Assembly: GCA_963751455.1 (NCBI GenBank)
Contig: CAVVUN010000001.1
Coordinates: 656,669-720,668 of the forward strand
DNA length: 64,000 bases
Direction: 5' to 3'
Source of the DNA: Nitrospirota bacterium
GTDB lineage: Bacteria; Nitrospirota; UBA9217
The notes under the pieces were generated by a model that did not search any database, was not told the DNA's origin, and worked only from the letters and a program-made list of their open reading frames with translations. The translations under genes were made by a program, and so were the position numbers. Within the stretch, counting starts at the first letter, position 1. Each line of letters starts with the position of its first letter. Shown piece by piece: positions 40,026 through 57,107 of the stretch.

Positions 40026-43000
40026 TTAGTAATACGGGGAATGCTCCCGCAGCCGCGGGTTAGAGAGGGATTTTCGCGCGAAAGCGCCAAGATGCGAAGA
40101 ATGCATAGTCAAGATACTGATGCCTTCGTAAAAAAAGTCCGTCTCACACAAAGTCACGAAGCCACAAAGAAAAAGATACGTCTTTATGGAATTATCTTCG
40201 TGTTTCCGTGCCTCCGTGTGAAAATCTGATTTTATTTTGAAAAATCCGCCCCAATCCGCGTCCAAAGGCTCTTTCCAGGTTCATCGGTTTGAGACATTGC
40301 CTCATTATGGTATCACTCTTATATTGTCCACTCCCTCGAACGTCATCGTCCCCACCCTCCCTGTTACATGCACCGGCACCTGCTCCCCATTCGAGAGAAG
40401 ATTGATGACCTCGCTCCGGTTGAACTTGACCATAAGGTCGGGAATTCGATCTTTATCATGATCTCCGATTGCATACGGCCGCGCCTCGGCCGGTACCTGT
40501 CCTGAGCCTGTCGAAGGGCCCTCCAGCCGGACCGATGAGATATCGATATCTGCCGGCTTATAATCGCCGGGCATTTCAATATAAACCACTACCCAGGTGC
40601 CCTTGCTCGCTCTGTTCAGAGTATCAGGATCGAAATCGATCGTGGCGTTGATGCTGGTTTTCGGCATGTGAATGGAGAACGCAGCCATGCTCATCCAGGG
40701 ACCGTACCCGTCCCCATCAAAGGCCCGTGCCCGCCACTGATACGTCTTGTTATCAGACAGCGGATCATTGAGGGTTATTGATGTGATTCCTGTGTTGTCC
40801 TGGGCAACGCCGCTGATCGATTGCACCAGTATGCCTTCGCTGTAGATCTCGAAATCGCAGGTAAGATCATCGCTGTCCGGATCCACTGCATTCGTTATCG
40901 AGAGCGTGGGCGTCGTTGTTGAAAGGCTGCTCCCTTCAGCAGGCGATGAGAGGCCCGGCGCGCCCGGTGAGTCATTGGCGGTATTTACGGTGAATTGGGA
41001 AAGGGCAGTCCAGGCGCTTACGGCTATTCCGTCAAAGGACCGGGCGCGCCAGTAATAAATCTGGTTTTCAATAAGCGATACCGGCACAGTCCACGAGGTA
41101 ATTTGAGCTGTTTCAGCAAGGCCTGAGGCATTCCGGACCGGGTTCAACATAGCCGCATCACTATAGAGCTCGAATTCGTAAGTGAGAGCGTCTCCGTCAA
41201 GGTCCGCCGAGTTGTGCACGGACAATGTCGGCATGAAAACATTCACGCCGGCATTGTTGGAAGGATTTGCGGGCAGCGGCGCTGTCGGGGCGTCGTTGGC
41301 AGTATTAGCAAAGAAAGATACCACTGACGACCAGGCGCTTTCGGCAGCGCCGTCGCTTGCCTTCGCTCGGAGATAGTATCGGGTATTGTCCCGGAGCCCA
41401 TCCACGTGCCACATTGTCGTATCCTGCCCTGAGCCTGTCGAAGAGGCCTGTCCTGCCATAACAGCGCCCGACCTGATCACATTACCGGAATCGAAGGTCA
41501 TGGCTGTATCAAGCTCGATAAAGTAGTTAATAACCGCAGAATCAGGGTCAGTGCTGTTTGCGACAATAATATCGGCAGTAAGGGCAGACACCGTAGAATT
41601 ATCGGCCGGCATGGTTATCGAAGGCGCAGTAGGCGCGTCATTAGACGTGTTCACGAAGAACCGGGAAGTGACTGACCACGGTCCTTCATCCAGCCAGTCA
41701 TCAGCCTGCGCTCTCCAGTAATACCAAACATTCTCCTCAAGGCTCAGGGTCGGCTGCCACGAAGTATTGCCTTGGCCGCTCAATACGCCTTTTGCAGATA
41801 TCACGATGCCGGCAAAATCAGGATCCTGTGCCACATCGAAATTATACGTGAGGCTGGCGCTGTCCGGATCAGCCGCATTGGTGACAGTCAGAATTGGAGT
41901 AAGAACGGACACATCTGTGCCATCTGCAGGGCTCGTTGGAATAGGCGCAGTCGGCGGATCATTCACGGTGTTGACCCTGAAAGATGCCGGCCTGTCCTGA
42001 GCAGAGTCGATGGACATCCATGGCCCGTACAACTTCCCGTCATATGCTCGTGTACGCCAGTAATAGGTCTGGTTTTCGGAAAGGGCCACGGCTACGATCC
42101 ATTTTGTGATTCCGGCCTGTTCGGAGACCGTGCCGGAGGAACTGGTGATGAGATTCGCTAAGCCGGGGTCGCTGTACACCTCAAACTCATACAAGAGCTT
42201 GTCGTCGTTCGGATCTGACGCATTATTCACAGAAAGCTCAGGAAAGAAGGTCAGGACATCCGCAGCCTGTCCGGGCCCGGCGAGCGACGGCGCGGACGGC
42301 GCCCCTTCGACCCTGAAGTAGGTCCCGGCAAGGGTCTCTTCCACCCCGGCGATATTTGCCCGCAGAATAACCAGGTAATCCCTGGCGCTGTAGTTTGTGG
42401 TGTTGATTGAAGCGGAATTGCTGGACGTTGCACCCATGGCAACGCTAGCTTGATCAGTGATCGTGTCGTATATCGACTCGTTTACTGCATGGACGGTCAG
42501 GACCGAGAGCGCAATGTTCTCAAGATCGGTATTTCCCGTGTTCGTTACGCCATACGAGATCGTCACTGTCTCGCCGGACAGCAGGCTCTGCTTGTCTACG
42601 GCAATCTGGCCCTTGAGCATGGCTGAAGGTTTGAGCGTATTCGCGATCACAACGTTCTGCGTGCCCGTGGCAATGACCGTACCTGTCGCATCTTTTATCT
42701 CAAGAGTTACGGGATATGTCCCCGAAGCATAGGTTCCCGTGTTCCAGTAACTCTTGAACGTGTACGCGGCCCCGGGCATGAGGGTGGATATGGTCTTCGT
42801 TTCGACGAAGACCGGACCGTTTAAACCGATTAAACTGTTTGATCCGCTTGAACTGATCTCTACCCGGGCCGACAGGTTTTCAAAAGCATAGTTCCCGCTC
42901 AAGCTCGTAACTGTCGAAGAAAGCGTTATTGTCTCGTTCGGGCTGTAGGAGATTTTGTCTACAGTCACCATTGCGTCCATCCGCTTGTCCGGGGCAATGG

Positions 43001-44862
43001 TAAAGCCGGCGCTCGCTCGTGATATGATTCGTCCTTCCTCAATGAGCTCCGCAATTAATTTGTAATCCCCTGCCAACGTCTTGCCAGTATTCCATGTCTG
43101 CGGAATGGTCCCGCTCCCGTTCGGCCCAAGGCTGACAGAAACGGCCTGCGCAATCGTCGCAATGAGGTTCCCGGCATTGTCCTGGACAACCAGGTTGAGG
43201 CTGAGGCGCGCGAGGAATCTAAGGTGTTGGCTGCAGCAATGGTTATCCGCGCATTCTCATTAGCCTGGTACCCGGTCTTGTCCAGGCTGATTGACGAAGT
43301 CAATCCCGAGGACTGGATAAAGAGCGCCTGTGACACGCTATTATTTTCCTCTTTGCTTTCCGCTATGGCATTCGCGGGATCAATCGTGATGACAATGCTT
43401 TTCTGACCCGCCATTCCCGTGGTATCGATGACAGCCTGTATTGTCGCTGTCTGACCGAGTTCGAGTACGGGATAAATCGTCTTCGTTTCGCCGAAGACTT
43501 CACTCCCAGCTCCGGAATCATCGCTCCGGACCGATACACGCACGGAAATGTTTCCTGTCCTGCTGCCGCGGTTCGTGATCGTGGCGCTGACAGCGACCTG
43601 ATCGCCCTCCCTTGGAGAAGCAGGAGCGATCACGATGTTTCCGCTACTAATCGAAAGATCCGGAAGCATAGGCGACTGGACGGATAATTCAACAAGCGCG
43701 AGGTTGTTCGCCTTGCCTGATTCAGAGAGGATATTTTCCGGGTCGATCGCGACATACAGCATGTTCGTGCCCGGATGCCCGAGGGTGTCGAAGGTAAATA
43801 ACGCTGCTGCCGATGTTCCGGGATTGAGGGAGAAAATGACCTGGTCCGCTCCGATTCTCTGTCCCCCGTTTAATGGGTTCCCGTTATAAAGTCTGACAGC
43901 GATGTTCGATGCCGCTGATGCGCCGATGTTCCGGATGTTCGCTGTTATGGGAATGATACTGCCTTCTGTATACGGCCCTGCGGGAAGGGTGATGTCCTCT
44001 GATGTTATGGCAAGGTCCGGCAGACCCTCAACGAACGTGATATCAATTGCCGCCTGGTTGTCGTCCTCGCGGCATTCCGGAATCAGATTCGCGCTGTCCA
44101 TAACCGCGTAAACATGATGCAACCCGATGCTGCCGCCTGCCCAGCTGTATCCAAGGTCCTGGTACTCTCCAGGCGCAAGGGCTTTCGTGGTGGATATTGT
44201 ACCGATGACGATATTGGCTGTTGGATTCCGTCAAAGAATGTGACAACCGCGCCGGCAGGCGCCTCTACAGCCCCGCCGTTGCCGATCCTGATTGTGAGGT
44301 CAACCGACACGCCCTTCTGCTCAGCGCGCAGATACGAGGCCGTAAGGTTGGGTGTGAGATAAGGATTCGGATTCGGCGCGATCGCAGCCTGCGTGCGGTA
44401 GGTGTTGTTCAAAAGCCAGCTCGGGGCCTCGTATTGAGGGATAGTTGTGTCGTCGTTCACGTTCGTGACGTGGTAGGAGGGCTGGTTCCATATCTTGCGC
44501 GCTCCGATCCAGGGCATGGATCCGGGCTGGGTGGTGTCCGCCTTGTATACGCGTATGCTCTCTTGATTGCCGTAATAGTCGTACCCATGAGCAATGATCT
44601 CTGCCTGGCCGTCCGCGTCCACGTCCGCGACGATCACGCTCTGATAAATATTCCCGCCGCCGAAAGTCTCTGAATAGAGAAGCTCCCCTGTCTTTCCGTC
44701 GAAGATCCTGAATTTGCCGTGGCCGTTGTCCATGACCTCGGGCCGGCCGTCCCCGTTCAAATCGAATACCGTGGCTGAGGATGCGGAGCCCTCCCAACCT
44801 TCAGCATAGGGCATGGATAGGGTCTTCTTGAGCCTGCCGTTCTTGTCGACGATTAAATATTT

Positions 44863-46251
44863 GGTAGTGTAGAAAAGGAGAGACTTTGGACATGAAGTAA
44901 CAACAAATTGCCCTCCATTTTATGGATAATAGTTTTGGACGAAACTAACCATAAAACAGGAGGGCAATATGGGTGTTACCCCACAAAGGAAAGGTATCAC
45001 CATCAGTTTTGATTGTCAATTTGAAGTGCATTTGAAGGACAGCTCTCTTTCATCAATACTCGCCGCCTTTGCCGAGCTTTTGCCGCAGATTTTGACGGAC
45101 TTCATTCAGAAAGTGCTTGTAGGCTTTGGCGAGCATGTGATGGCTCTTAAGAAAAAGCCTTTTGCCTGCGGGTGCGGCAATGATCGGGAATTCACATGGA
45201 AGACGCGGCACGGGAAAAAGACTAAGATTCATGCCTTTTACCAATGGGTCTGGTTACAGCAGCTCCAGGTTGTTTGCAAACGCTGTGGGAGTAAGCTCTA
45301 CATCACCCGAAAGCTGCTCGGAATGAAGCCGAAAAAGCGAATAGCGGCAGAAATTTATCGAAAGCTTGGGCTTCTGGGTTCCTTGACAACCTTTCGTGTG
45401 GCGGAGAAGATCGGCAAGATGTTCGGCTGGGCCGTGGACAAGATGACGGTCTGGAGCGCTGTCCAAAAGACGGGGTCGGAAATAGAGTTCAAGGTTGATG
45501 AAAAGGAGCTTCCCCAGGGCGAGGCTGACGGGACCGGGATCGGCATCAAGGGAATCAAGAAGCGCGGGAAGGAATTGAAGGCGTTCATACAGTACAAGAA
45601 GGGTGGCGGCGTGCGGGTGGCGGGCCTTGATATCGGGAATTATAACGGGTCCTGGGACAACCTTTTCAAGAAGAGTCTCAAGGCTCTGGGGAGCTTCACC
45701 CGTCCGTTTTCCTTAATCACCGACGGCGACACCTCCATCCTGGATGCTCTTAAGGGGAAGGTGAAGATAATTGTTCAGCGCTGCTTGTGGCATATTCCCT
45801 ATCAAGCGAAGTATGTGTTGTGGCAGGACAAAGTGAAGCGTAAGAGCGAGGACTGGTTGTATGTGATCGTGGAGCTGATGGAAATCTGCGCGATACGGCC
45901 GTTTGTAGACGACAAGCAGACGATAGCCGCGATGATCGCTTCGAAGAAGGCCCGGCTGGATGAACTGATAAAGCGGTGCGCTGAGAGAGAATATACTCAC
46001 ACAGCCGCTTATCTTGAAAATGCCCGCCCGGATATGTTTACGGCGATCAAGAAGAGATTAGACGGTAAGACCACGAGCAAGGTGGAGCGACTCATGCGCA
46101 CGGTCAATATGCGGGTAAACGTGAGCAAGTGGACCGAGGCCGGAGCGCTGAATGTCATGAAAGTCCGGCTGGCTTATTACTATAACGGATTTGATGCATA
46201 ATGCGCGTAAAATGGGGGGCTTTTGTCAGGTCTCCACTTGACAACGCTACC
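44863..46251 (+). mobile_element. ISH6-like insertion sequence, 1,389 bp
   Basis: Imperfect TIRs beginning GGTAG(T/C)GT; 8-bp TSD AAATATTT at 44855-44862 and 46252-46259. Confidence 0.88.
44969..46201 (+). CDS. DDE transposase (ISH6/UPF0236-like)
   Basis: EADGT, ITDGD, QRCLWH, TTSKVERLMR; N-terminal Cys pairs; bounded by TIRs. Confidence 0.85.
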   Translation: MGVTPQRKGITISFDCQFEVHLKDSSLSSILAAFAELLPQILTDFIQKVLVGFGEHVMALKKKPFACGCGNDREFTWKTRHGKKTKIHAFYQWVWLQQLQVVCKRCGSKLYITRKLLGMKPKKRIAAEIYRKLGLLGSLTTFRVAEKIGKMFGWAVDKMTVWSAVQKTGSEIEFKVDEKELPQGEADGTGIGIKGIKKRGKELKAFIQYKKGGGVRVAGLDIGNYNGSWDNLFKKSLKALGSFTRPFSLITDGDTSILDALKGKVKIIVQRCLWHIPYQAKYVLWQDKVKRKSEDWLYVIVELMEICAIRPFVDDKQTIAAMIASKKARLDELIKRCAEREYTHTAAYLENARPDMFTAIKKRLDGKTTSKVERLMRTVNMRVNVSKWTEAGALNVMKVRLAYYYNGFDA

Positions 46252-49200
46252 AAATATTTGTTGAATCCTCTCACCCCGATCTCGGGCACACCGTCGCCGT
46301 CGAAGTCCGCGATGAGGGGCGGTCCCCCGAAGCCGGAAATCTGCGCGCCTTCCAGATTTTTCAGGCTCACCGGCCCCCACAAGACCTTGCCGTTGTGGTC
46401 GAGAAGATACAGATAATAAATACCTGACTGGAACGTGAGCAGAACGACTTCAGGATAAGGATCGTCGTTGAAGTTCGCGACCGCGTTGATCCCGTCGGGC
46501 AGGCTGGTATTCCACCATTTGGTCTTGAGGTCCTTTACGCCGTTAGCGTCGACTGTATAGGTATACGCTGTATTGCCAGCTACTATGTCCGGCGTGCCGT
46601 CAAGGTCCAGATCAGCCGCGATCGGCGTCGTACCCATAAAATTAGCTGCACCAGAGCCGTACTTGTAATCGCTTGCCCAGGTCCTGACGCTCCCGTCGGC
46701 ATTGAACATGGTCACACCCATCAATATCTCCGGCGATCCATTCTTGTCCAGGTCGGCAAGTACGGGTGCGTCGTAGTCAGTAAACGGCGGATTCCAGGGA
46801 GAAGTGGCAATCATCACGTTTTTGACTGCCTGATAATTGTCCCATTTTAGTTTAAAGGCATTTTGAGCGGTATCAAAATCATACGCAAGAAGACCCGGGC
46901 CGGACCCGGTGGACATGTTCCTCGTCGTTATGATCTCGGGTTTTCCGTCACTATCGATGTCACCCACAACCGGATAGGGATAGATTCCGAGCGGGCGCAC
47001 GGGGTCTTTAAGAGAGGTTATCACAGCCCCGGTATCTCCCCGCAAGGCCACCAATGCTGTATCATTAGCATTGGAATAATTTACCCACCCAAAGACAACA
47101 GCGGGAACGTCTTTTTCGTCAGCCTCGCCGTCGCCGTTCGAATCAAAGAAATACGGGACCACGGCGGGGAGGAAAACGCTGCCGAATGCCTTTTTCCAAG
47201 ACCACTTTTTCGTCAATTGTATCCTGCTCTGGGGCGCTGTTTCGCAGTCCTTGCATGAGGCAAGGATGTTGTTCGTCTCATCCTGTTCGCGGACTGCGTC
47301 CCCTGAATCGATCAGGGCGTACAGGGGCGAATGAAGGAAAGCGACGGTTCCTGCGAGCGGAACTGCGGCCGTGCCTGCGCTTTCCGGCCAGAGCGCGGGG
47401 GGGGCCGTCGATGTCCCGTACGTGACGAGAGAAGAGCCGAGACTAAGATCAACGCCGGCGGTATATGCGGCGTCTCCGTCCCTGTCCTCGAAGACGAGTA
47501 CGGTAAACGGCGTGGTGATCTTGTCGTCGCCTTTATTCTGGAACGTGACATAAGCCTTGCCGCCCGCCGAGAGGGTCTGGGTGTCGGTGGTCATGGACGA
47601 AAGATCGATTTTGGTGGGCATAAGATCAGGACCGAGGATCTCGCCGGGGGCTTTTATCCTGAGGGCGCGAATGGCGAAATTATTTTCCTCGTACATTTCC
47701 GTCACGACATTTTCCGTGTCAGCTACTGCATGGAACCGATAGGTCCCGGGCGCTGCCGTGAACGCATAGCTCAGGGTGACTTCCCCATCATCAGTGATGT
47801 TGCTTATTGGGAAGGTCTCGAGCAGGGCGCCGCCATCCGTTGGATCGCCGTTGTACAGCGCGAGGTTGAAGGCCCCGGTTTCCTTGATTCCGGTGTTCCG
47901 CGCGGTGATGAAAAGGACGACAGGATCGTTGCTGACAGGATTGCTGGGCGTAAAGACAAGATCGGCTGCGGAGATCGAGATATCGACCATGTCGGTCATG
48001 ACGCGGACAGAGGCGCTGTTGTTGCTTTCGCTTGCTTCGGCTATCGTGTTTGCCCTGTCCACGACCGCATACACAGTATGTATCCCCTCCGGGATCGGCC
48101 AGTACGCGATCATGGTATGCGAGCCGCCTGCCGGCAGGAAAGAAACGGACTCGCTTGCGATAAGGGTGCCTCCGGCTTCAGGAGCGTTGTCAAAAATCGA
48201 GATCGTGAAGTTGTCAGCCGCCTCGGTCCCGAAGTTCCTGACTATGGTACTGATAGTTACCAGGTCCCCTGCACGCGGCCGGGAGGGTATGAATGTGATG
48301 TCCATGGAGGATACGCTTAGGTCGGCAAGGCTCTGCGTTCCGCCGACATTCACGGTAACTGAGCCGGTGTTGTTCGTCTCGGATAGTTCGGTGACTGTAT
48401 CACCCGTATCCGCAACGAGATACAGCGTGTGACTGCCGTTGCCAGTAAGCGTAACACCGACACTGCCGCTGCGTACTTCGGTCCCTGCAAGACCGGAAAT
48501 ATTGATCGACTGTAATAAGGTGCCCTGCCCTGAGCCTGCCGAAGGGTTGCCGTCGTACAGGCTCACAGAAAATGCACCTGTACCCGACTCACCCAAATTT
48601 CTGATCTTATATCCAAGAGTGAACGGAGTTCCGGATACAGGGACATACGTGGACGGTTTCAGGTCTTCGGAATAAACCGCCAGATCAGGCCCCGTCGCCA
48701 CCCAAATACGGGCGGAGGATTTATTGTCGGATTCAGATGTTTCAGAGATGAGATTGTCAGGATCGACGATAACGAATATGGTCTTGCCGCCAATGCCGGT
48801 GAATGAAGCAGTTACGGAGACAGGAGCTGAGGAGTTCGGGGTAAGAGACGGAATTGTTTGATCAGCACCGATTTGAACACCAGATGGGACCTGCCCTGAG
48901 CCTGTCGAAGGGTCTCCGAGATAAAAGCGAACAGCGATATTCGATGCAGTTTCATAGCCCGCATTCTTGATTGTCACCGTAATCGTCGTCTCCTCCCCTT
49001 CCTGAGGCATGGGTTTGGATAAAGAGATATTGCTGACTGTAACATTCGGTCGAGCCGTTGCTAATGCCTGGAGCGCAAGAGCTGTAGAATATGGGTCGTC
49101 GTTCCAGGAACCATTGGAGAACTGAGCCGTGGTGAGGAAATTGATCGCATTCTGGATGGCGGATGCATACCCCTGCCCCTTTAGAGACGAAGACTCTAAC

Positions 49201-50008
49201 GGGGTGCTTTCGATCAATGACATGACAGATAAGGCTGTTTGATATACGTTTGATGGACTTGATCCAAACCCGCCGTCGGCGTTCTGATGTCCGAGCAGGA
49301 ACGCCGATGCTTGATTGATCGAATTTTGATTGATGAAGACGGAATTGTATGCAGCCAACGTTCTAAGGACTATCGACGTTATATAAGTGCTGCTCGTATC
49401 ATTCGCTGATAAACCCCATCCGCCGTCGGTGTTCTGATTGGCTATCAGGTGGTTCAATGACTGACCGATGAGCGTTGTGTCGGAGTAATTTGCAGCCTTC
49501 AGTGCCTGGAGGGCGAGGGCGGTGTCCAAAGGATTGCTCGGTGTGCTTTTATATCCACCAAAATCGCCATTCTTGTTCTGATACGTTAGAAGCGTTCCTA
49601 AGTCCACAGATACATCACTTCCCGCAACGGCCAGCACACTTATCTTTCCCGAGAGATATTCAGTTGTCTTAACATTCGCGCTTTGCAACCATGTAAGCAC
49701 ATTTTGATAATCCAATGAATTTGAATTATAAATCGCCAGGGCTATAGCTGCTTGCGATGTGTCACGGAAAGCCACAGGAGTTACATCTTCAGCAGTCAGC
49801 TCATCGATATAGGTGCCCGCGGGTATTTTCCGACCCCAATAATCATTGCCCAGCTTATCTTGTAGCAGCCATGACATGCCAACCGAAGCATGTTGTGGCA
49901 CCTCGGCTAAAGATGGGAGTGCGGCAAATGCCATAATTAATACGATAATGAGGGGTATTAAATTATTTTTGAGGTTCATCATCATACTCCTTACACAAAA
50001 TAAACCCG

Positions 50009-51466: not shown

Positions 51467-52080
51467 TAAGTGGACCCCTCTGTCAAGACAATAAAGGGGT
51501 GAGATTAAGATGGTAACCGACCAAGCCGCAGCTGCATGGCGCTGCCCCGGTTTCTACCTCTCCCTGAGGTTCTTTTCGCTCTTTGAATTTATCCACAATC
51601 CTTGCTCCACCGCCGTTCGCTGTTCGATAGATCACATCCGGTGTGCTGTAGTCCAATGATTGATGTGTTCTTTCCGTGTTGTAGAACATAAAGTATTTCG
51701 TCAGCCCCAGTTGCGCTTCAGGTACTGTGGCGTACCCTTTTAAATATACGTCTTCGTGCTTTACGCTCCGCCATAGCCGTTCCACGAAGATATTGTCCAA
51801 TGCACGGCCGCGGCCGTCCATGCTGATGTTAATGCAGTGCGCCTTGAGCACGCCGGTGAAGGCCTCAGAGGTGAACTGGCAGCCCTGATCGGTGTTGAAG
51901 ATCTCGGGGATGCCGTATGTCTGTAATGCCTGTTCTAGGCAGTCCACGCAGAAGCTGCTATCGAGCGTGTTTGATAATCGCCATGCCAGCACTTTGCGTG
52001 AGTACCAGTCGATCACGGCCACCAGGTACACAAATCCCCGCGCCAGGCGGATGTAGGTGATGTCAGTGCTCCATACCTGG
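51467..52080 (-). mobile_element. IS3-family remnant (3' part of orfB + right end)
   Basis: QVWSTDITY...AVIDWYSR...NTDQGCQF...DNIFVERLWRSVK; end TAAGTGGACCCCTCTGTCAAGACA; 5' part absent. Confidence 0.88.
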
Positions 52081-52910
52081 GGGCGCTCGAATTCTTAAGG
52101 TACATACAGGGCAGCCTCCGCGTTGATATCTGTCGATGACTCTTTCCCGGTGTTCATGGTCGTTCTTGCATTTCCACCACACCAGTCGCGTTGAAAATGG
52201 CGTAACGTCCTTCGGGGTCCAGGAGCCGTTTTTCGCCGGGTGCCACTCACGGGCCAGCTTTGGGTTCACTGCTTTCAGATTGTTGCCTTTACCCACCTTT
52301 CGCAGGCCGCAGCGATAACAGCCATGCCCTTCGTTTCTGCTGGATATGCGGGCTTCCCCACTCATGACCCGCCCTGCACATCCACCACGCGACGTGTATG
52401 ACTGCCTGCGGGGACGTCCTTTGGCGTCAGCGGCGCGTTCCTGGTTGGATGCCATTCTCGGGCCAATTCCGGCTTCATGACCGCCAGGCATTTTCTTTGT
52501 TTCCTGCAATCCGGGCAAGCGCTCCCCTTGACTCTGGTGGTGATGACAGCCTTCCATTCATGGCCTTCCCGGCACACCCACCACACTCGTTTACCGGACC
52601 CGGCCCGCACGTCTTTCGGCGTGAGCGGCGCGTTCTTAGCAGGATGCCATTCTGCGGCAAGTTCGGGATTCGAGGTCTGCAAGCAATTTTCTTTGGTGGC
52701 CAGGCGGCCTGTGCAATAAGGACAACCAGAACCCTGTCGGTTGTAGATAGAAGCTTCCCATGCATGACCTTTTTTACACAGCCACCATACTTTTTTAGTG
52801 GAGCCGGCTGTCACGTCGCGGGGAGTAAGCGGCGCATTCTTCGTGGGATGCCACTCTCGGGCGAGCGCCCTGTTCGTCTTAGCAAATGAAGGTTTTCTGT
52901 TCTTTTTCAT
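52080..52910 (-). pseudogene. Degenerate copy of the zinc-ribbon (DUF4379-like) repeat gene
   Basis: LAREWHPTKN...WWLCKKGH.W...GCPYC repeats split over two frames; C-terminus fused to the IS3 remnant. Confidence 0.8.
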
Positions 52911-53058
52911 AGTGTGGTGTTGTTGGTTTTCGATATCTCGGTGATCGCGTTCCCGGAGTCAATGAGGAGATAGAGCGTATGGCTCCAATCTCCCGCTTGA
53001 ATTTCAGCTTGCAATATGCCCCAAATTGGCTATAATAAATTCAAGGAGATACAGTATT

Positions 53059-53789: not shown

Positions 53790-54070
53790 AATCTCTTCGT
53801 TTCGGAGATGAGATTGTCGGAAGCAGCAACAACGAAGATCGTCTTGCCGCAAGTTCCAGTGAATGAAGCAGTTATGGAGATTTGAGTTGAGGAGTCGAGT
53901 GGAAGGGATGGGATTATTTGGTCTGTGCCGATCTGAACACCAACGGATGCAGGATCGCCAAAATAGAAACGTACCACTACAGTGTCTTCAAAACCGGCAT
54001 TCTTTATTGTCGCCGTAATTATCGTCTCCTCCCCTTCCCTCGGCATGGATTTGGAAAGAGAAATATTGCA
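53790..54070 (-). pseudogene. CARDB-domain remnant paralogous to 48735-49030
   Basis: NISLSKSMPREGEETIITATIKNAG...GKTIFVVAASDNLISET closely matches the first CARDB of giant protein 2. Confidence 0.8.
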
Positions 54071-54940: not shown

Positions 54941-56014
54941 TTATGCCGTCTCGAACAATCGGGGCACCCGCGCTTTCAAGGTGCAGACCGGGCACCCTCC
55001 TCGTTTATATCTGTCGATGACTCGTTCCTGGTGCTCATGACCCTTTCTGCACGTCCACCACACGAGCCGCGTGGAAAATGGCGTCACGTCCCTCGGCGTC
55101 CACCAAGAATTCTTCGTCGTATGCCACTCGCGGGCGAGTCTCGGGCTTACAGCCTGAAGACAGTTGTCCTCTTTGCAAACCCTTCGCCCTGAACAGTAGG
55201 GACACCCATGACCGTTATTTCGATGCAACACCGTCTCTTTCCATTCGTGACCTTGTTTACACATCCACCAGACCTTTTTTCCAGAGCCGTAGGTCACATC
55301 CCGGGGCGTCAACAGGGCGTTCTTCGCCAGATGCCACTCCTTTGCAATCTTCGGATTTACTGTTTGAAGGCAGTTCTCCTTACACGCTTTTTTCCCCACA
55401 CAGTAAGGACACCCCTGACCTGTGTTTCTATGCACTATTGACGTCTGCCATTCATGGCCTTTTTTGCACAACCACCATACCTTTTTGTTGGATCCGGCTT
55501 TCATATCCATGGGAGTCAAGGGGCCGTTCCGGGTCGCGTGCCACTCACCGGCCAACTTCGGGTTCACGGTCTGCAAACAGTTGTCATGAGTCGCCTTCTG
55601 GCCCGCACAGTAGGGGCAGCCGGAGCCGTTGTTCCTATGGTAAATAGCGGTTTGCCATTCGTGGCCCTTCCTGCATACCCACCACACATTCCTGCCGGAG
55701 TTGGCAGTCACTGCCCGCGGGGTCCACGACTCATTCTTCGTCGGATGCCACTCCTTTGCAATCTTCGGATTTACGGTCTGAAGACAGTTATCTTTAGAGA
55801 CTCTTCGCCCCGTGCAATAGGGGCACCCCTTGCCCGTGCTTCTATTGGATACGGTCGCATTCCATTCATGGTTCTTCTTGCACTTCCACCAGAATCTTTT
55901 ATTGGAATATGGCAGGACTTTCCCCGGAGTCAGCGGCCCGTTTTTTGTCGGATGCCATTCTCGGGCGAGCGCCCTGTTCGCTTTGGCCAGTGATGGTTTT
56001 GCTTTCTTTTTCAT
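54941..56014 (-). CDS. Treble-clef zinc-ribbon (DUF4379-like) tandem-repeat protein without nuclease domain
   Basis: Five ~70-aa repeats EWHPTKN..LTP...KVWW.C.KGHEW...GCPYC. Confidence 0.85.
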   Translation of the reverse strand: MKKKAKPSLAKANRALAREWHPTKNGPLTPGKVLPYSNKRFWWKCKKNHEWNATVSNRSTGKGCPYCTGRRVSKDNCLQTVNPKIAKEWHPTKNESWTPRAVTANSGRNVWWVCRKGHEWQTAIYHRNNGSGCPYCAGQKATHDNCLQTVNPKLAGEWHATRNGPLTPMDMKAGSNKKVWWLCKKGHEWQTSIVHRNTGQGCPYCVGKKACKENCLQTVNPKIAKEWHLAKNALLTPRDVTYGSGKKVWWMCKQGHEWKETVLHRNNGHGCPYCSGRRVCKEDNCLQAVSPRLAREWHTTKNSWWTPRDVTPFSTRLVWWTCRKGHEHQERVIDRYKRGGCPVCTLKARVPRLFETA

Positions 56015-57072
56015 CGTGCGGTATTGTTTGTTTCGTTCGTCTCGTTGATCTGGTTGAGCGGTCTCGCGATCTTCTTCGTTCGTGCTGCCGCTGCTTCGGT
56101 CCTGTGTCCATGAGCGCGGACGCCCGCTTTTCGCTTTTTTCCGGCTGCGGCTTTCCTTAGATTGCTCCAGCCGGGCTTTCCGAACACGCGGATGAGGACT
56201 TTCAGGCTATGGCGGTGCCGGGCGTGAAAATGGGAGTAGCTCGGTTTTCGCCCGATTGCGTGAGCAGTGTCCAAATAATCCTGTATCAGGTGTTCGGCAT
56301 CCAGCCGATAGCTTTTCGGCATGGCTTTCTTCCCAGTTGCTTTTATGAGCCGCCTCCAGCCGGGCTTGCCGAATACGCGATCAAGCACTTTCGGGGTATG
56401 GCACTGATAAGTGTACTCGATGAGCTTCGGCCGCCTTCCCAGGCTATCCTGCAGCTCCAAAAAATCTTTCATAAGATGGACGGCGTTTAGATTGCGATCG
56501 ATAAATGGCTTATTAAATGCGATAAGCGGTTTGTCGCCCGCCGCGCGCACCAAATTTCGCCATCCGTACCTGCCGAATACGGCGGTAATGACACCCTGGC
56601 TATAGCATTCTTTGCAATATTCATTGCATCGGGGCTGTCTGCGGAGTTTCTTTCTCAGTGCGCGATACGCTTGAACTAGAATATCTTCCGAGGGATTGCT
56701 CTTGATAAAAGGCGTGTCGCCTGCCGCTTCGACCAGCCGTTGCCACCCGGGCCTGCCGAATATCCGGTTAATGATCCAATAGCCGTAGCACTCTTCCTCA
56801 TATTCCTTGTAATCGGGTTGACGGCCGAGTTTCTTTTTCAGGTCATGATAGTCTTGAATGAGCATGTCCCTGGTGCCGGCCGGTTTGTGGTGCGGCTTAT
56901 CACCGGCCTCTGCTAAAAACGATCTCCATCCAGGGCGGCCGAAAGCTCCGCAGAGCAGAAAGATGCTGTGATGTCTTTTGGCAAATTCGAGGCACGTGGG
57001 CCGTCTTCCAAGCGTCCTTTTCAATTGTCGATAGTCATTCAGCAGATGTTCTTTTGAAATTTTCCGTCTCAA
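56011..57072 (-). CDS. Homing-endonuclease-associated repeat protein without nuclease domain
   Basis: Five repeats LIQDY..L...LGR.P...EY...VFG.PGW..L..AAG; ATGA overlap with the zinc-ribbon gene. Confidence 0.75.
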   Translation of the reverse strand: MRRKISKEHLLNDYRQLKRTLGRRPTCLEFAKRHHSIFLLCGAFGRPGWRSFLAEAGDKPHHKPAGTRDMLIQDYHDLKKKLGRQPDYKEYEEECYGYWIINRIFGRPGWQRLVEAAGDTPFIKSNPSEDILVQAYRALRKKLRRQPRCNEYCKECYSQGVITAVFGRYGWRNLVRAAGDKPLIAFNKPFIDRNLNAVHLMKDFLELQDSLGRRPKLIEYTYQCHTPKVLDRVFGKPGWRRLIKATGKKAMPKSYRLDAEHLIQDYLDTAHAIGRKPSYSHFHARHRHSLKVLIRVFGKPGWSNLRKAAAGKKRKAGVRAHGHRTEAAAARTKKIARPLNQINETNETNNTAR

Positions 57073-57107
57073 TCCAAACCGCTCCTATTTATATTTAGCA
57101 TTTGAGC

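Follow-up and report, generated by a model that had tools for sequence, protein, structure and literature searches.

Insertion sequences (IS) of the IS200/IS605 type and REPIN/RAYT systems recognise hairpins in single-stranded DNA and insert without regular target duplication. Cyanobacterial small dispersed repeats (SDRs), reportedly described by Elhai and colleagues in 2008, are said to be 21-27 nt long, to nest in themselves and in other repeats and to carry compensatory changes that support a structure; they are also said to be confined to one cyanobacterial group and to lack a partner enzyme. One of them, SDR5, inserts precisely in HIP1 according to the text of PMC4390886. The Ssn/SRM system consists of GIY-YIG nuclease genes accompanied by NTS/SRM hairpins (Chenal et al. 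2025, PMC11893778); in the text of that article NTS copies are rarely inside genes (2%), accumulation of the repeats is raised as a hypothesis only, and single-strand hairpin recognition of the IS200/IS605 and REPIN/RAYT types is discussed. Insertions of hairpins into coding sequence are already known, because the text of Di Nocera et al. (2013, PMC3733652) reports short tagged hairpins, GTAG/CGTC repetitive extragenic palindromes (REPs) and Rickettsia palindromic elements (RPEs), in frame in unrelated proteins, in some genes twice, at sites suggested to be loops or linkers. Here we describe a 23-24-nt repeat unit in a 64,000-nt window of Nitrospirota DNA (the whole stretch that was analysed), where several copies lie in frame in one large gene with CARDB domains. 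The unit is a real DNA-level micro-element, and its family was not met in the literature searched: a search with five DNA forms and the peptide PSTGSGQ gave no match, its coverage leaving aside subscription papers, figures and the supplements of the Ssn paper, which could list the motif, and the unit was not found in four supplements of PMC3733652 (figures lay outside that search). In-frame intragenic repeats as such (RPEs, intragenic REPs) were known already.

An earlier note on this DNA had reported a motif inserted in frame five times, always in the same orientation. All of its copies are present as described (Table 1): the 23-mer occurs at sites 1, 2 (with one mismatch), 4 and 5, the degenerate fifth copy at site 3 reads CCTGTCCTGAGCAGAGTCGATGGA, and 100 shuffles of the sequence gave no occurrence. 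The encoded peptides (PSTGSGQ, SSTGSGQ, PSAGSGQ and IDSAQDR, from two reading frames) and the empty CARDB loop proposed as an internal control were likewise found, as were sister CARDB loops that read GDPTDGG and GNPLNGG. Codon alignments with paralogues and orthologues (the orthologue search matched the 5' part of the host gene in 26 and the 3' part in 15 of 61 genomes) show that the net gain at every window site is in frame. The empty allele of site 1 is EGTVP in the paralogue on contig C15 of this genome and EG(T/V)(I/V) in nine alignable rows from other genomes; at site 2 seven orthologue rows are 8 aa shorter, and at site 3 five rows are 7 aa and one row 6 aa shorter, so that orthologues are without the peptide rather than conserving it. 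The five copies are nevertheless not five events in this copy of the gene: the C15 paralogue is identical at sites 2 and 3 and its site 5 loop is also filled (+24 nt), which makes three sites filled in both, and the site 3 position in L098 (genome G013, a different genus) holds a decayed copy with non-synonymous changes. A paralogue on contig C4 has a near-copy of the motif with zero net gain. When the two CARDB domains are modelled with AlphaFold (mean predicted local distance difference test, pLDDT, 91.7), both inserts fall in inter-strand loops, and residues 55-58 at site 5 have pLDDT <50. This genome contains 12 copies of the motif, 7 of which are within the window gene and its paralogue, and the sole copies in genomes G011 (two) and G022 (one) are independent occurrences in CARDB loops of orthologues; this gene family is therefore a hot spot. 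Like the Rickettsia elements, the unit is found in frame at loops of unrelated proteins (below), and the view of it as a micro-element that acts at the DNA level, lengthens protein loops and is comparable to them is supported.

What are the ends of the unit, and does it choose its targets? Its consensus, 23 or 24 nt long, is YCCTTCGRC-N2/3-GCTCAGGRCAGG. When the flanks of 236 filled sites were joined and the joined sequences searched, exact 9+9-nt empty alleles were found for 82, and at 64 of these the net gain is the unit (30 sites), the unit plus 1 nt (18) or the unit plus 2 nt (16), which sets the ends at YCCTTCGRC..GCTCAGGRCAGG. By the same comparison insertion is near-precise and without regular target duplication. 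Among the matches listed, the right flank is C in 111 of 128 distinct occurrences and the left flank is G-R-Y in 49 of 126 (15% background); the target preference of the unit is weak. The suggestion that CCTG/CAGG is the target did not hold: CAGG is in the left flank of only 6 of those 128 listed occurrences, it is part of the unit itself, and empty alleles such as TTA/CAAAGG and GTGAG/CTT are without it. The exception is site 2, whose target already had CCTGTCC; the unit there is directly followed by CCTGTCC, which repeats the unit's own 5' end. Many non-coding copies are nested within other repeats or within the hairpin itself, and tandem arrays with a period of 23-24 also occur among them. 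In size, self-nesting and embedding in other repeats the unit is like the SDRs as they are reportedly described.

Dispersed cores of the form TGAGC-N2/3-GYCGAA number 109 in this genome, and a count of coding versus intergenic positions, which the earlier note had proposed, places 73 of the 109 in intergenic DNA by our gene model. For these sister forms exact empties were found at 24 of the 109 cores, with a net gain of 24 nt in 10 cases and of 25 nt in 7. Such 24- and 25-nt forms, of the GACTTCG..GAGTC and GTTCGACTGAGCTCACGCCGAAGTC types, are precisely inserted in other repeats of this genome (G000; e.g., C8:317637, C12:401229 and C15:1055298), with exact empties within the same genome. Elsewhere (genome G055, loci L117-L154) several SRM-type hairpins have, in place of their GAA loop, a variant of 28 nt with a CTCC tail; its orientation is almost always the same, and 3 nt are lost.

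The hairpin is claimed from covariation in its stem and not from fold energy, since ViennaRNA folding of the window 23-mer copies was no better than that of shuffles. Over 90 distinct cores from this genome, pairing at the three positions that flank the core is 70-74% and eight stem types occur, while slid positions pair in 17-43% and none of 2000 permutations was as high; the test counts distinct cores, and copies of a subfamily are not independent of each other. Tandem sheared G-A pairs with a GNA mini-loop make a type of DNA hairpin that an energy model can miss, and such a structure would explain the failure of the folding test here. The unit is like the GTAG/CGTC REPs in being a 20-40-nt dispersed stem-loop that is mostly intergenic, the stem of the unit being supported by covariation but not by a significant fold energy. 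It is unlike them in its tag, (G)CCTG, with a leader of the GCCTG/GTTCG/GCTCA type, in its occurrence in many phyla, and in its partner, which is a clade of GIY-YIG genes and not RAYT.

That clade was collected with three core-flanked GIY-YIG genes (L157, L172 and L299) as search seeds. Of 80 metagenomic clade loci, 57 have a core no more than 600 nt away, and in 32 the cores form an inverted pair; the corresponding control counts are 0 of 20 for Ssn-type, 0 of 18 for housekeeping and 0 of 19 for viral loci. A looser core pattern matched one Ssn-type locus and 18 of 19 clade loci within the phylum, 3 of these being the seeds. The 20 Ssn-type loci came from genome searches because scanning viral sequences with an Ssn-type control protein gave no matches. 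A nuclease gene between inverted motif pairs, which had been proposed as something to look for, therefore exists in other genomes, and the CCTG form itself is beside clade loci L454, L456, L457 and L469. A GTTCGACTGAGCTCACGCCGAAGTC-type sister form also flanks clade gene L463, and at L170/L172 (G033:C47) two different small GIY-YIG genes are in tandem with direct CTGCCCTGAGC copies on both sides. That the 23-24-nt unit represents a shortened version of the hairpin flanking the genes in this UPF0213-like GIY-YIG nuclease clade is well supported.

The arrangement is like the Ssn/SRM system as set out in the article's text: a single-domain GIY-YIG gene of ~95 aa lies between oriented, tagged hairpins of which further copies are scattered through the genome (for the clade in other genomes, not this one). 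The published SRM pattern, taken from the same text, nevertheless matches none of the 6 window sites and none of the 80 clade loci, compared with 7 of 20 Ssn-type loci. The nearest solved structures to the clade are UPF0213 proteins. A quick tree (98 of 101 rows, 40 of the 80 metagenomic loci, with SRM-flanked proxies standing for the Ssn (cd10448) side) has a branch of support 100 between the clade and Ssn-type proteins, whereas the housekeeping UPF0213-like ones are not set apart from it. NCBIfam gave no family for the clade, and an Rfam search with four partner loci and a plasmid search with one partner locus gave no match.

Copies of the unit occur at other places in this genome as well as in other phyla. 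The exact 22-mer occurs at 123 or more loci in species genomes, isolates and chromosome-level assemblies included, and the CCTG form is present in 67 of 301 genomes of this phylum. The matches listed hold at least 128 distinct occurrences of the 22-mer, which by record titles are from Chloroflexota, Acidobacteriota, several proteobacterial groups, Patescibacteria and others. A Pfam scan of 71 open frames from these listed matches supports 23 coding copies (19 PSTGSGQ and 4 LRQAQ), which represent 23 of 55 same-strand open reading frames (ORFs) versus 0 of 16 on the opposite strand, and all 23 have their CAGG end downstream on the coding strand. In several the insert is outside the matched domain. 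Thymidylate synthase has the unit in frame as +6 aa at an ADGK turn, and alanyl-tRNA synthetase also has it in frame. The strand bias may come from selection, as targets in the sense direction would be Asp/Gly/Asn-Pro codons in turns and those in the antisense direction would be Val/Ala/Ile codons, and the added peptides are most likely tolerated passengers. At two places in this genome (C15:1426955 and 1430153) and at L095 in genome G033 the unit is in frame at the identical site of a DDGMSYGDY...EQLTYLLF gene, presumably the type I methyltransferase HsdM, which suggests that the insertion was carried by gene transfer.

How might so short a unit move? We think it probable that a nuclease of the GIY-YIG clade has spread it. 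The enzyme would bind the hairpin as single-stranded DNA and nick next to the 5' tag, in the manner of SsnA with NTS; repair would then copy the unit into the break, either through capture of a strand or through template switching, and in doing so add 0-2 bases or lose a few. Within genes only frame-keeping outcomes in surface loops would survive, which would account for net gains of 9, 18, 21 and 24 nt, and CARDB GRY-CCN loops may be favoured because they suit the unit's weak preference for targets and are similar to one of its ends from the outset. Several observations weigh against this account. The clade gene was searched for in this genome and not found, and among the 13 genomes with >10 copies it was found (E<=1e-25) in G265 and G131 only; in G205 (56 copies, one contig, 100% complete) the searches found no clade gene, Ssn-type gene or Y1 transposase. 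Because this and most high-copy genomes are without the gene, mobilisation by the nuclease would require that the gene be present transiently. The exact CCTG form is at just 2 of the 80 metagenomic clade loci, where the usual flank has a CCGTTCG leader. In favour of the account, the CCTG form occurs in 10 of 17 genomes with a clade gene versus 57 of 284 without, although this count takes related genomes as independent and two of the genomes are seeds. Some of the single-count empty alleles may be tandem neighbours or chance matches. The copies have no replication-strand bias (35/56 and 37/68, with dnaA as the origin, the opposite point as the terminus and approximate genome lengths), and GIY-YIG enzymes are hydrolytic, with no known strand-joining activity.

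The same element could instead owe its dispersal to host repair or to a reverse transcriptase, with RNA or an oligonucleotide as the intermediate, a route reportedly proposed for the cyanobacterial SDRs, with the nuclease gene a mere neighbour. The frequent absence of that gene from high-copy genomes, the single orientation, relative to the gene, of the 23 Pfam-supported copies among the matches listed, and the clustering of copies within other, possibly break-prone, hairpin repeats all speak for such a route, but the tight physical linkage to one nuclease clade does not, and the strand bias could equally arise from target preference together with selection on the peptide; we judge it unlikely. 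Less likely still is that the unit belongs to the REP type, in which an HUH Y1 transposase (RAYT/TnpA-REP) cuts and pastes a single strand, here guided by the tetranucleotide CCTG. Its tag-plus-hairpin anatomy and near-precise insertion would fit, and this genome has 33 Y1 matches; we rejected a RAYT partner, however, because the CCTG form flanks no Y1 gene at the 34 loci examined (the core is at 3 of 34), and 3 of 5 high-copy genomes are without a Y1 match. Moreover the cores at L022 are insertions into other repeats for which empty alleles exist.

That no DNA element is involved, and the peptide is a Gly/Ser linker selected by convergence, is very improbable. PSTGSGQ does predominate in the Pfam-supported copies listed and native CARDB loops already read P-S-x-G, but identical DNA is used in two frames, exact empty alleles and nesting are found, the non-coding copies contradict the convergence reading, and the old copy shared with L098 has decayed through non-synonymous changes. 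The chance that the whole is an assembly artefact is negligible: the two frameshifts of the host gene could be sequencing errors, but the unit is also in the paralogue, in homologous loops of relatives, and in isolate and chromosome-level assemblies. Spread by a nuclease of the GIY-YIG clade is the account that we prefer.

The second palindrome that the earlier note placed in the host gene is real, and none of 200 shuffles folds as well (z -3.5), but it belongs to a separate CCCC[GT]TTAG family tied to a different GIY-YIG clade, and the CAGG beside it is likely a coincidence. This family flanks 5 of 5 loci of that clade, including a frameshifted gene in this genome. At L004 (G000:C15:1133832) a frameshifted GIY-YIG gene lies amid several CCCCGTTAGAG inverted repeats, and CCCCGTTAGAG ends also bound about a dozen pairs in this genome that resemble miniature inverted-repeat transposable elements.

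The statement that the motif copies lie in one protein is correct only for the ancestral gene, and the C15 paralogue is an intact single 3,224-aa ORF; in the window an IS and two frameshifts split the host gene (Table 1). Seven more near-identical copies of this IS are present in the genome, and a Pfam scan of its ORF gave no match. The window also contains ORFs of repeated CxxC units (WHPTKN...WWxCxxGHEW) and an adjoining helical-repeat ORF (52063-52958, 54941-56206 and 56011-57084), and many other abundant short repeats occur genome-wide, including two CRISPR-like repeats and ATCTGCG-rich arrays.

Table 1. Unit copies, control and host-gene pieces in the window (window coordinates; net gain relative to unfilled relatives).
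Feature	Position	Strand	Description
Site 1	40496..40518	+	23-nt unit; protein EGPSTGSGQVP; net +18 nt
Site 2	41423..41446	+	Unit; protein ASSTGSGQ; net +24 nt
Site 3	41991..42014	+	Degenerate unit, second reading frame; SIDSAQDR; net +21 nt
Site 4	48524..48546	+	Unit, second CARDB loop; NPSAGSGQG; net +9 nt, overlaps native P-S-x-G codons
Site 5	48890..48912	+	Unit, first CARDB loop; DPSTGSGQVPSG; net +18 nt
Second palindrome	49176..49204	+	29 nt, separate CCCC[GT]TTAG family; TPLESSSLKG; net +27 nt
Empty-site control	53927..53959	-	CARDB fragment; GDPASVGVQIG
Host gene, 5' piece	46155..49985	-	Prenyltransferase/squalene-cyclase-like toroid, CARDB domains, FG-GAP repeats
Host gene, middle pieces	43055..44862	-	FG-GAP, CARDB; divided by frameshifts near 44230 and 43240
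Host gene, 3' piece	40305..43256	-	Ig/fn3-like domains; 89% identity to C15 paralogue
Multicopy IS	44863..46251	+	410-aa ORF; 8-bp target duplication AAATATTT; interrupts host gene

The above comparisons permit a wider and more tentative proposal, which we consider possible but would not favour as a whole: that a GIY-YIG single-strand nuclease, and not a transposase, moves this 23-24-nt unit as a pan-bacterial mobile element, that the unit parasitises other repeats as well as its own copies and supplies essential enzymes with ready-made Gly/Ser linkers, and that each small GIY-YIG clade seeds its own unit, as the second palindrome suggests. If true, the unit would sit at the lower size limit of mobile DNA. 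For the question of how repeats of <30 nt spread, the unit offers defined ends, many empty alleles and a candidate enzyme, so that its mobility is directly testable. It accounts for the recurrent PSTGSGQ and LRQAQDR insertions in unrelated proteins, and its insertions map loop positions that are tolerant of insertion. The clade itself points to another group of nucleases, distinct from the Ssn family, that are likely specific for sequences in single-stranded DNA.

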